DNA of 64,000 nucleotides from Parachlamydiales bacterium (GTDB lineage: Bacteria; Chlamydiota; Chlamydiia; Chlamydiales; JABDDJ01), in assembly GCA_041671045.1 (NCBI GenBank), contig JBAZCF010000002.1, forward strand, positions 213,370-277,369. The letters are read 5' to 3'. The notes under the pieces were generated by a model. It worked only from the letters and a program-made list of their open reading frames with translations, was not told the DNA's origin and did not search any database. Positions 36,687-38,749 of the stretch are shown here, one piece after another. How positions within the stretch are numbered: the first letter of the stretch is position 1; the number at the start of each line of letters is the position of its first letter. The position numbers were made by a program, and so were the translations under genes.

Positions 36687-38498
36687 ATGATAAGTAATAT
36701 TTTTCTTCAAAAATTCCTATCACAATCCTCGATAGGGAAAAAATTTATCCTAGCCTTTATTTTCCTTCTCCTAGCGTTCATACTGCTACTCGCCTGGATT
36801 CTCTATGATTTCAATGGAAAACTTAAAGACGCCTTCCTTCAACAACATTCTGCCGAATACCATGCCCAAGCAAGGAAAATTTACGAAGGAATCAAACTGC
36901 AAAAACTAGATGAAGGGAGCGAACCTGCCACAGAAGAGTACATCGAATCCACTTTCAACCAGCTCATCGCTCTAGATAAAAAATATAAAGACGAATTAGG
37001 GACCAATCCCGAAGAATTAAGCCAAAGACGCCCCGGCGTAGGTACCCCGGAATCCCTTTTTTCACAATGGACACAAAGCACCATCACCACCGATAAAGCG
37101 ACAAAACTCCAACTGTATGAAAGCATCGAACAGCAACTAGCAATGCTCATGCGCTACGTCACAAATAACGCCCCGCCAGGAACTTACAACGGCCTCTACT
37201 ATTATCGTTTCCAACAACTACTAGACCCTACTACAGCCCCAGCGCAAAATGCCAAATACTGGAAAGAATTGATAGAAGATGTCCAAAATTCCGGCCTCCC
37301 CAAAATTATCCTTGCCAACCTCCCTCAAGATACCAACCCTTCAAATAAAGAAGGCATCGCCGAAGAATCTTTTTTTAGGGAGGAAATGAGCCGCCAACAC
37401 CGCGAACTCATAGACCTGGGAACTGCAGAACTTTTAAGCTACCGCAGAAAACTCCTAGCCATCCTCATCTTCTGCAGCTGCACCTTCGCTGCTATGGGAA
37501 TCTATTTCCTTTGGTACATCTACCGGCCCCTCATCCATATGCTGGAAACTAACCGGAAATTCACCGAAGGCGACTCTTCCGTAAGATACCGCATCGAAAG
37601 TTCCGACGAAATAGGCCTGCTCGGAGGCGTATTCAATAATCTCTATTCCCTCATCTCCGATATGGTCAAACATATCGATTCCGCCGGGAAGATGCTTAAA
37701 ACATCTTCCGATGATATTCTGAAAACAGCCGAAGTACAACAGGATACCGTTGTAGAACAAGAGAAAATCACCCGTCAAATTGGAAATAAAGCCTACGATA
37801 TTTCTGAGACTTCTAAAGAACTCTCAGAAACAATGACAGAGATAAGCCAGGCTTCAGAATCGGCTTCCAGCTTAGCTCAAGAAGGTAGGATTCAGCTGCA
37901 GCATCTCGAAAACATCATGCAGAAACTCGTAGGCGCTTCCAACCACCTAGTCTCCACTCTATCACACCTCAACGACCGTACCCGCGGTGTCACCTCCATC
38001 ATCTCTACCATGGTCCACGTCGCCGACGAAACGAATATGCTCTCCCTCAATACCGCCCTCGAAGCCGCTAAAGCTAAACAAGTCGGCAAAGGCTTCGCCA
38101 TCATCGCCAGTGAAATAAAACGCCTCGCCGAACAAACCGCCCTCGCTACCCTCAACATCGAAAGGGTCATCAAAGAAATCCTCGAAATGATGGACCATAG
38201 CCTCGACCAAGTTCAACTGATCTCTGACGAAATCCTCAATAGCGTTGATAAAGCCTCACAAGTCCAACTCCACTTCACTGAAATATTTGATAAAGTCCAA
38301 TATGTCTCAGGAAAATTCAACGCCGTCGACGCCGCCATGCGTAACCAACTCCAAAGCGCCCGCGATATCGATGGCTCCATCCAACTCCTAAAACTTGTCT
38401 CACAAGACTCCATGCGCACCATCAAACAATTCCGAACATCCCTCCTCGACCTCAATAGCACCGTCTCCATACTAAAACAAGCCAAAGGCGATTTCTAG
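36687..38498 (+). CDS. Methyl-accepting chemotaxis-like sensor protein (2 TM, HAMP, MCP signalling domain)
   Basis: The layout is TM1 (FILAFIFLLLAFILLLAWILY), an extracytoplasmic region of about 230 aa, TM2, and HAMP (LIHMLETNRKFTEGD...DEIGLLGGVFNNL). The conserved MCP hairpin tip is present (ETNMLSLNTALEAAKAKQVGKGFAIIASEIKRLAEQT). Confidence 0.8.
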   Translation: MISNIFLQKFLSQSSIGKKFILAFIFLLLAFILLLAWILYDFNGKLKDAFLQQHSAEYHAQARKIYEGIKLQKLDEGSEPATEEYIESTFNQLIALDKKYKDELGTNPEELSQRRPGVGTPESLFSQWTQSTITTDKATKLQLYESIEQQLAMLMRYVTNNAPPGTYNGLYYYRFQQLLDPTTAPAQNAKYWKELIEDVQNSGLPKIILANLPQDTNPSNKEGIAEESFFREEMSRQHRELIDLGTAELLSYRRKLLAILIFCSCTFAAMGIYFLWYIYRPLIHMLETNRKFTEGDSSVRYRIESSDEIGLLGGVFNNLYSLISDMVKHIDSAGKMLKTSSDDILKTAEVQQDTVVEQEKITRQIGNKAYDISETSKELSETMTEISQASESASSLAQEGRIQLQHLENIMQKLVGASNHLVSTLSHLNDRTRGVTSIISTMVHVADETNMLSLNTALEAAKAKQVGKGFAIIASEIKRLAEQTALATLNIERVIKEILEMMDHSLDQVQLISDEILNSVDKASQVQLHFTEIFDKVQYVSGKFNAVDAAMRNQLQSARDIDGSIQLLKLVSQDSMRTIKQFRTSLLDLNSTVSILKQAKGDF

Positions 38499-38749
38499 GG
38501 GGCTTTGCCCCCTAGAACCCCCACCAAAGGGCAAAGCCCTTTGGAAACCGCGTTCTCCCCTTCGGGATTTACACGTTAGATTTGGCTCGGAAGCATTAAT
38601 TAATCTCTACATCAGAAATGCAAAGTAAAATGCTTCTATTAATAAAAAAAGAAAAATAGAGGTGAGATAGTCAGACTCTTGTCAATCCAATCGCGGATTC
38701 CCAAGGCTGCTAGGCCTTGGGTGGGGGTGCAGGGGGCGAAGCCCCCTGC
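38496..38749. repeat. MITE-like element A: two diverged 57-58-bp double-hairpin arms in inverted orientation around a 139-bp AT-rich core
   Basis: The left arm (38496-38552) is TAGGGGGCTTTGCCCCCTAGAACCCCCACCAAAGGGCAAAGCCCTTTGGAAACCGCG. The right arm (38692-38749) is CGCGGATTCCCAAGGCTGCTAGGCCTTGGGTGGGGGTGCAGGGGGCGAAGCCCCCTGC. The element lies between the convergent MCP and GDH genes. Confidence 0.85.

Follow-up and report, generated by a model that had tools for sequence, protein, structure and literature searches.

A double-hairpin palindromic repeat at gene 3' ends in a Parachlamydiales genome, probably a horizontally spread REP/BIME-like family

The 64-kb stretch of DNA analysed here (the window) belongs to a metagenome-assembled Parachlamydiales genome and carries five copies of a 58-nt double-hairpin unit, called the arm below, as two inverted pairs (copies A and B) and one solo arm (C). 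Copy A, at 38495-38749, is probably a locus of a horizontally spread, non-autonomous REP/BIME-like (REPIN- or MITE-like) family of palindromic repeats. Small palindromic repeats of the REP, BIME and MITE kinds are common. For just a few of these families, to our knowledge, have the mobilising enzymes, the host range and the effects been established.

The double-hairpin arm and the reading-frame ends it occupies

Two covariance models, R1 built from the five window arms only and R2 from 62 arms, were each run over all 64 kb without filters. Both returned the five arms exactly, at 67-85 bits, and nothing else above 28 bits. The hairpin-1 pattern GGGGGCNNNGCCCCC matched four times in the window (0.02 expected), and the hairpin-2 pattern three times (0.17 expected). 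These motif counts and models confirmed the layout and the five arms described in the initial annotation. The arms and spacers, with the covariance-model scores, were as follows.

38495..38553, plus strand: arm A_left (74.9 bits with R1, 73.1 bits with R2)
38554..38690: spacer (core) of copy A, AT-rich
38691..38749, minus strand: arm A_right (79.6 bits)
53528..53585, plus strand: arm B_left (84.3 bits)
53586..53804: spacer of copy B, AT-rich
53805..53862, minus strand: arm B_right (85 bits)
60580..60637, minus strand: solo arm C (82.6 bits)

The arms are about 58 nt long (56-59 nt in copy A) and run in the order hairpin 1, ACCCCC linker, hairpin 2 and tail AATCCGCG. Read from the outside inward, the general form is CAGGGGGC-nnn-GCCCCCTG, ACCCCC, CCAAAGGnC-loop-GnCCTTTGG and the tail AAWCCGCG; two unpaired motifs, the ACCCC linker and a GGAAWCCGCG tail, are conserved among the arms. 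In A_left, hairpin 1 (CTAGGGGGC-TTT-GCCCCCTAG) is followed by GAACCCCCA, hairpin 2 (CCAAAGGGC-AAA-GCCCTTTGG) and AAACCGCG. A_right, on the minus strand, reads CAGGGGGC-TTC-GCCCCCTG, CACCCCCA, CCCAAGGC-CTAGCA-GCCTTGGG, AATCCGCG.

The two arms of copy A form a 56-nt inverted repeat, 71% complementary, with 137-139 nt between them. Those of copy B, the second inverted pair (53528-53862), were identical at 57 of 58 model positions, with both hairpins, the linker and the tail the same. Arm C is an AT-shifted version, in which the stems CCAGGGGAC/GTCCCCTGG and ACAAAGGAT/ATCCTTTGT are both still paired (60589-60637). An independent Logan assembly of SRR18595301 contains this arm as well (L005, 1610-1667), which excluded an assembly artefact.

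All three loci lie between convergent genes, as had been noted initially. Copy A is located between a methyl-accepting chemotaxis protein (MCP) gene and a NAD-glutamate dehydrogenase (GDH) gene, copy B between a DsbD_2/TauE-like gene and smc, and copy C between serS and an outer-membrane efflux (OEP/TolC-like) gene. Three of the six convergent junctions of the window were occupied by arms, and none of about 20 other junctions. The window otherwise carries housekeeping genes, such as hrcA-grpE-dnaK, secDF, recJ and gltX.

The arms adjoin or extend into the neighboring reading frames. Hairpin 1 of A_left contains the TAG stop codon of the MCP gene (38496-38498), with a compensating change in the 3' half of its stem (CTAG...CTAG). 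A_right encodes the last 12 codons (QGASPPAPPPKA) of the GDH open reading frame (ORF, 38710-41826) and its TAG stop codon (38710-38712), which falls in the loop of hairpin 2. The first base of B_left is the G in the TAG stop of the DsbD_2/TauE-like gene (53526-53528), and B_right ends 3 nt beyond the TAG stop of smc (53866-53868). In the OEP gene, the final 8 codons (RGLCPLDP) and the stop, TGA (60609-60611), are supplied by arm C. The arms thus provide the stop codon or a new C-terminal tail to three flanking genes. The elements had been annotated as having no coding capacity; this held for the cores and not for the arms, which give codons to the flanking genes.

The same junctions were compared in relatives. 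The order GDH, MCP, hrcA, grpE, dnaK was kept in three of them, with GDH 87%, 70% and 69% identical (L077, L078 and L079), and arms were absent at the GDH and MCP ends in all three. In the 87% relative, the GDH C-terminus reads ...EPE followed by TPKKTPKR, versus ...EPE followed by QGASPPAPPPKA, the translation of the arm, in the window. The MCP C-terminus is ...KGDF in both, followed by TAA in the relative and by the TAG of the arm in the window. The 87% relative (L080) also had no double-hairpin arm at the smc or DsbD_2 ends, and in a 64% relative (L082) the smc/DsbD_2 spacer was just 32 bp, with one bidirectional terminator hairpin.

The arms, absent in the relatives and overwriting or supplying the ends of three reading frames, were therefore interpreted as insertions. 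Both pairs were either gained in the lineage of the window or lost in the relatives, and the altered GDH tail favors a gain. The GC content of the arms is 57-71%, versus 35-50% for the window (genome roughly 42%), and A_left was as near to arms of Rhodospirillales (81%) as to the arms of its own genome. Together these suggested a foreign composition.

Stem covariation, strand preference and transcript ends

In alignments fitted to the model, and among sequences that are related, changes on both sides with pairing kept were found at 6 of the 18 stem pairs in the five window arms, at 11 of 18 in 22 arms (96% of cells paired) and at 13 of 18 in 52 distinct arms (95% paired). No column shuffle out of 500 reached the observed covariation in any of these three sets. 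When the partners were slid by 1-3 columns, pairing fell from 95% to 33-62%.

The compensatory changes proposed in the initial annotation were therefore real. Its suggestion that the similarity goes beyond recent copying was also upheld, by the covarying hairpins and by the occurrence of the module at about 80% identity in other phyla. Covariation in a palindrome, however, can reflect recognition of folded DNA or quasi-palindrome correction, and is by itself no proof of selection for an RNA function. The stem halves can stay complementary by template-switch correction as well as by selection.

The mismatches in the stems were not evenly distributed between the strands. On the C-rich strand, which would be the one transcribed from the adjacent gene, there were 40 A.C/C.A cells versus 2 G.T in the 52 distinct arms. 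The complementary G-rich strand would have G.U/G.T wobbles at these positions. One inherited mismatch of the prophage sub-family (below) accounted for 29 of the 40, so that roughly 11-13 independent cases versus 2 remained. Folding energy favored the G-rich strand overall (p = 5e-4), one sub-family driving the result; the 21 arms outside the prophage sub-family, window arms included, showed no strand difference.

One interpretation is that selection acts on the arms as RNA, at the 3' ends of mRNAs. The two GC-rich stem-loops, once transcribed from the convergent neighbor genes, would halt RNA polymerase or hold back 3' exonucleases, as REP/BIME stabilisers do. Each of the five arms adjoins or overlaps a stop codon and has hairpin 1 on the side of the gene, and in Rhodospirillales solo arms lie 3-45 nt from stop codons. 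This placement, the restriction to convergent junctions in the window, the covariation in both stems and the maintained pairing of the AT-richer stems in copy C are all as expected of such an element.

On the other hand, no T-run followed the hairpins on either strand of any arm, and no terminator-like site was found in 38400-38850 or 53450-53950, although canonical terminators of a hairpin and a T-run are present at other convergent junctions of the window (about 32656-32690 and 3320-3375). Prophage arms lie between co-directional late genes (terminase, portal, capsid) in both orientations, and at L002 and L004 arms lie upstream of genes in tandem junctions. These locations make strong termination at the arms unlikely. 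The role that had been proposed, as bidirectional terminator or 3'-end stabiliser, was unsupported by the evidence available.

The arms may form a 3' stem-loop that slows exonucleases. The mismatches in the gene-sense strand, however, are of the destabilising A.C type and not G.U, and the same gene ends exist without arms in the relatives. The preference for convergent junctions and stop codons is expected of any insertion, which must avoid promoters and coding sequence and would survive at the least harmful sites. We consider selection as an RNA element rather unlikely.

A different role, at the level of DNA, would be that of a host site which binds proteins or structures the DNA (with, for example, a nucleoid protein, gyrase or a recombinase as partner), or of a roadblock to antisense convergent transcription. 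The best-folding strand would then be the G-rich one, which agrees with the mismatch types and with the overall folding energy, and the conserved unpaired linker and tail are compatible with a binding site. The BIMEs of Escherichia coli bind IHF, gyrase and Pol I. The strand preference, however, came largely from a single sub-family and vanished outside it, and the same junctions in the relatives do without arms. We regard a host site of this kind as highly improbable.

The Rfam 15 scan of the whole window gave no match at the gathering threshold, and a permissive scan of 38400-38850 gave chance-level matches only (the best at 31.9 bits against a cut-off of 230). An origin of the arms from a tRNA or another conserved RNA was unsupported by Rfam.

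Spread of the family and the repeated unit

In a scan with the exact pattern over one genome per species, four loci were matched, and all of these belong to Rhodospirillales metagenome-assembled genomes. Further loci came from scans of viral and metagenome contigs and from plasmid BLAST, and R1 served to separate true arms from chance matches. R1 found arms outside the pattern selection (L002:1202, L004:2101, L031:1079, L001:6119, L003:18 and L074:1810, at 38-47 bits). That a model trained on the window arms alone detected such unselected arms supported the existence of a repeat family. The same model found more than 40 arms in the prophage loci, and 62 arms, of which 52 were distinct, were collected in total.

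Among 65 pattern matches in metagenomes most were due to chance, and the real ones were L016 and L031. BLAST of the arms and of a 136-bp prophage unit against the plasmid and phage collections gave one true relative, on a Desulfobaculum plasmid, and a few half-matches (below); the lack of any other match was possibly due to low-complexity masking.

Most of the arms reside in E217-like prophages with genes for terminase, portal and sheath. The hosts are Acetobacteraceae (vinegar bacteria), namely Novacetimonas hansenii, N. maltaceti, N. pomaceti, Gluconacetobacter entanii and Komagataeibacter sp. In these prophages the arm is usually joined to an inverted second double-hairpin arm of another type (CCGGGC-nnn-GCCCGG, ACCCGG, CAGGGAGC-nnn-GCTCCCTG). 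The two together form the 136-bp unit, which may be repeated head to tail and was found five times in L083. The density reached 9 arms (L085) or 8 arms (L083 and L091) per 10-12 kb. Representative sites in Novacetimonas/Gluconacetobacter prophages, where the fused arms make up 136-bp units arrayed in tandem between phage structural genes, were as follows.

L083, 1-690: fused-arm site
L085, about 1235-1565, 5055-5382 and 7164-7356: fused-arm sites
L008, 6198-6290, 9030-9176 and 11824-12020: fused-arm sites

Inverted pairs and solo arms were also seen elsewhere. Plasmid NZ_CP090010 of the sulfate reducer Desulfobaculum bizertense (Desulfovibrionaceae; L074) carries an inverted pair of 368 bp with a 255-bp spacer, between convergent genes. 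Solo arms were present at L001 and L003. The spacers of inverted pairs ranged from 46 to 255 bp across the loci, and those of L002, L004, L031 and L074 all differed.

The spacers of the window were no more uniform. Core A contained no ORF of at least 45 aa and no consensus promoter or terminator. The small ORFs found in the core scans (20-45 aa only) were translations of the arms, and the promoter scan of copy B gave only weak promoter-like words in the AT-rich core. Cores A and B had no significant similarity to each other (p about 0.03-0.08, 10-11-mers), nor did the cores to intergenic DNA of the relatives. The palindrome CATTAATTAAT, which the initial annotation had taken as shared by the two cores, proved to be a weak link, since two matches also arose in 2 of 100 shuffles. 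The spacer of copy B also contains a perfect microsatellite, (AATTAAA) x 10.6, at 53662-53735, which is likely a slippage-prone tract of variable length.

The lack of significant similarity between the cores, together with the solo arms, heterodimers and tandem arrays, indicated that the repeated unit is the 58-nt arm. The MITE-like architecture proposed earlier was therefore retained in part: the inverted arms, non-coding spacer and extragenic position stood, and the unit of 250-335 bp did not.

A classical MITE was also considered. The arm-core-arm structure (255-335 bp) would then be a deletion derivative of an insertion sequence (IS), moved by cut-and-paste by a DDE transposase that binds the arms. 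Terminal inverted arms around a short, AT-rich, non-coding core are typical of such elements. The virtually identical arms of copy B look as they would after a recent insertion, and the Desulfobaculum plasmid copy has the same design. Another inverted-repeat element, with 65-nt arms, at the SMC/DsbD_2 junction of the 87% relative suggested that such junctions collect MITE-like elements.

However, no direct target duplication was found at A, B or L074, and the cores were unrelated in sequence and in length. A MITE is also not expected to occur as solo arms (C, L001, L003), as heterodimers or as 136-bp units repeated head to tail. The arms of copy A are only 71% complementary and of different sub-types (with weak support from clustering), and about 300 kb of loci contained no transposase-bearing full-length element between arms. 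We judge a classical MITE quite unlikely.

The idea that copy A is a heterodimer of alpha and beta sub-types received only weak support from clustering. The element of the 87% relative (L080, 3608-3839; Logan SRR28640817) is a different one of 232 bp, with 65-nt inverted arms that are 91% complementary, GTACGCAAAG twice and a 102-bp AT-rich core. No further copy of it was found in the window or the fetched loci.

Several sequences resembling parts of the arm were noted. Hairpin 1 and TGCACCCCC without hairpin 2 occurred in L075 (1500-1527, a Selenomonas plasmid), in L076 (1501-1528, a Streptomyces plasmid) and on Tritonibacter chromids (H2, H4), as half-matches of 22-27 bits. They may represent half-units of a larger superfamily or have arisen by chance in GC-rich DNA. 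Upstream of GDH in the 69% Parachlamydiales relative (L079, 6573-6632), a diverged double hairpin scored 31.5 bits with R2 and reads TTGGTGAGC-GCT-GCTCCCCAA, ACCCCTCGC, CAGGGGAAA-TGA-TTTCCCCTG. Modules related to the arm may be more widespread in Parachlamydiales.

The window contains other small repeats. At 60458-60558, downstream of serS, TCCTAGTATAGG/CCTATACTAGGA bracket two hairpins (60477-60503 and 60500-60550) of a second small repeat family. CCTATACTARGATAAG, preceded by GCGACAAGTC, occurs again by the dnaK stop (32717-32750), with 3 matches versus 0.06 expected. A 16-nt inverted repeat, AGTCGCGTTTAAACTT / AAGTTTAGGCGCGACT, spanning 86 nt just past the secDF stop (2669-2786), may be another palindromic intergenic element.

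Some neighboring genes also deserve mention. The MCP gene (36687-38498) encodes HAMP and MCPsignal domains and lies beside hrcA-grpE-dnaK in three relatives too. Two giant ORFs, 11863-22113 (3416 aa, no Pfam match) and 22259-32653 (3464 aa), adjoin each other in DNA of lower GC (35-39%); in the 87% relative an ORF of 3663 aa or more lies beside GDH, with only a weak DUF3638 match. Many genes at about 36000-64000 (for example 52001-56000) have a strikingly C-rich coding strand and C-ending codons; the GC skew is -0.285 for a gene on the plus strand and +0.386 for smc on the minus strand. The giant ORFs lack these features, and codon usage is heterogeneous within one contig.

Element class, mobilisation and biological meaning

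The arms resemble REP, BIME and REPIN sequences in being short, GC-rich, imperfect palindromes in extragenic DNA, often just past stop codons. Like REPs (PMC3733652), they are found singly, in inverted dimers whose spacers vary, in heterodimers that combine two types and in tandem clusters. A stem mismatch typical of a sub-family, occasional overlap with the ends of reading frames and the lack of target duplication are further likenesses. They differ in that the unit is of about 58 nt with two hairpins and an ACCCC linker, whereas a REP is one palindrome of 20-40 nt. Moreover, arms about 80% identical occur in three phyla and are carried by prophages and a plasmid, in contrast to the vertical inheritance described for REPIN-RAYT systems.

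The GTAG and CGTC tags that define the described REP superfamilies (PMC3733652) were missing beside either stem in the alignment of the 52 distinct arms. Conserved instead were CCGCG/CCATG at the tails, besides the ACCCC linker. Di Nocera et al. reported that CGTC repeats are missing in Acetobacteraceae (PMC3733652). Searching the literature with keywords and sequence strings, we found no account of this double-hairpin family. We would therefore describe the family as similar to REP/BIME-type repeats by its organisation, without placing it in the GTAG or CGTC-RAYT families.

Other known elements share fewer features. Bacterial MITEs (Correia/CREE of Neisseria, ERIC/IRU, RUP, Nezha) are likewise non-coding and intergenic, of 150-370 bp with inverted ends and an AT-rich middle; they can fold into a long hairpin (z = -7.2 for the arm-core-arm copies here) and can alter gene 3' ends. 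Here, in contrast, there was no target-site duplication, related IS or conserved core, and no transposase between the arms, which also occur solo or head to tail.

Rickettsia palindromic elements (RPE) and intragenic REPs also add short peptides to proteins, the former in an obligate intracellular lineage (PMC3733652). The arms, however, supply only the last 8-12 codons and the stop, with no in-frame insertion within a gene body, and are unrelated to these elements in sequence; the tag CGTC is found in RPE-4 and RPE-6. Bidirectional terminators of the intrinsic (Rho-independent) type are also GC-rich stem-loops between convergent genes, but they carry a U/T tract directly after the hairpin, whereas the arms have none, contain two hairpins each and have the same sequence in distant phyla.

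Considering these likenesses, we propose the following for a mobile REP/BIME-like family. It would have reached the chlamydial lineage horizontally, plausibly carried by prophages and plasmids, and multiplied there as selfish, non-autonomous DNA. The arms would have inserted right at gene 3' ends, in two cases as an inverted pair on either side of a spacer and in one as a solo arm. The stems would stay paired because a putative mobilising enzyme recognises the folded single strand of DNA during replication or transposition. By analogy with REP/RAYT or IS200/IS605-type systems, this may be an HUH-type enzyme. Quasi-palindrome correction may help to keep the stem halves complementary. Any effect on the transcript, as a stable stem-loop at the mRNA 3' end, would be a by-product, possibly co-opted.

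Several observations weigh against such a mobile family. In REP/REPIN systems the repeats flank a single-copy RAYT gene (Y1 transposase, PF01797). No Y1_Tnp/RAYT or other transposase was found among the ORFs of the window, and the 83 ORFs at the arm-rich loci (L083-L093) included no mobilising gene, save one Mu-type transposase in one locus; these ORFs represent a small portion of each genome. With that exception, the genes near the arms at L001, L008, L083-L093 and in the window were housekeeping or phage structural genes only. No target-site duplication of 2-9 bp was present at A or B, or at L074; the flanks read TTTC/TAG... and ...CCCCCTG/CTCAGG for copy A, and TTCTA/G... and ...CTGC/CTGCTA for copy B. 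The missing tags belong here as well.

REP/REPIN families have tens to hundreds of copies per genome; for the source genome, the density of five arms comes from the 64-kb window. The presence/absence comparison rests on relatives of 64-87% protein identity instead of strains, so that loss is indistinguishable from gain by this comparison. In addition, hairpin 1 adjoins the stop codon at all three loci, and such tight abutment also fits a selected function at the 3' end.

A bolder proposal is that the arm is the recognition module of an undescribed mobilisation system. This would comprise a tagless REP-like repeat and an enzyme other than a classical RAYT, and in contrast to REPIN-RAYT systems it would cross phyla on prophages and plasmids. 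It would also have been active in an obligate intracellular lineage, that of the chlamydiae, and have altered the 3' ends of housekeeping genes there. We consider this unlikely.

The kind of element is well known. What is new is the two-hairpin unit, the missing tags, the spread over three phyla, the carriage by prophages and a plasmid, and the activity in a chlamydial lineage. A practical matter for annotation is that the arms give rise to wrong or changed C-termini (GDH and OEP) and to small spurious ORFs. Komagataeibacter and Novacetimonas are culturable, which makes the mobility and transcript effects of the arms accessible to experiment.

The family is common to Chlamydiota, Alphaproteobacteria and a Desulfovibrionaceae plasmid, and provides a counter-example to the vertical-only inheritance of REP-like repeats. 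As a repeat shared by three phyla, it can serve as a rare marker of foreign DNA reaching an intracellular lineage of chlamydiae.

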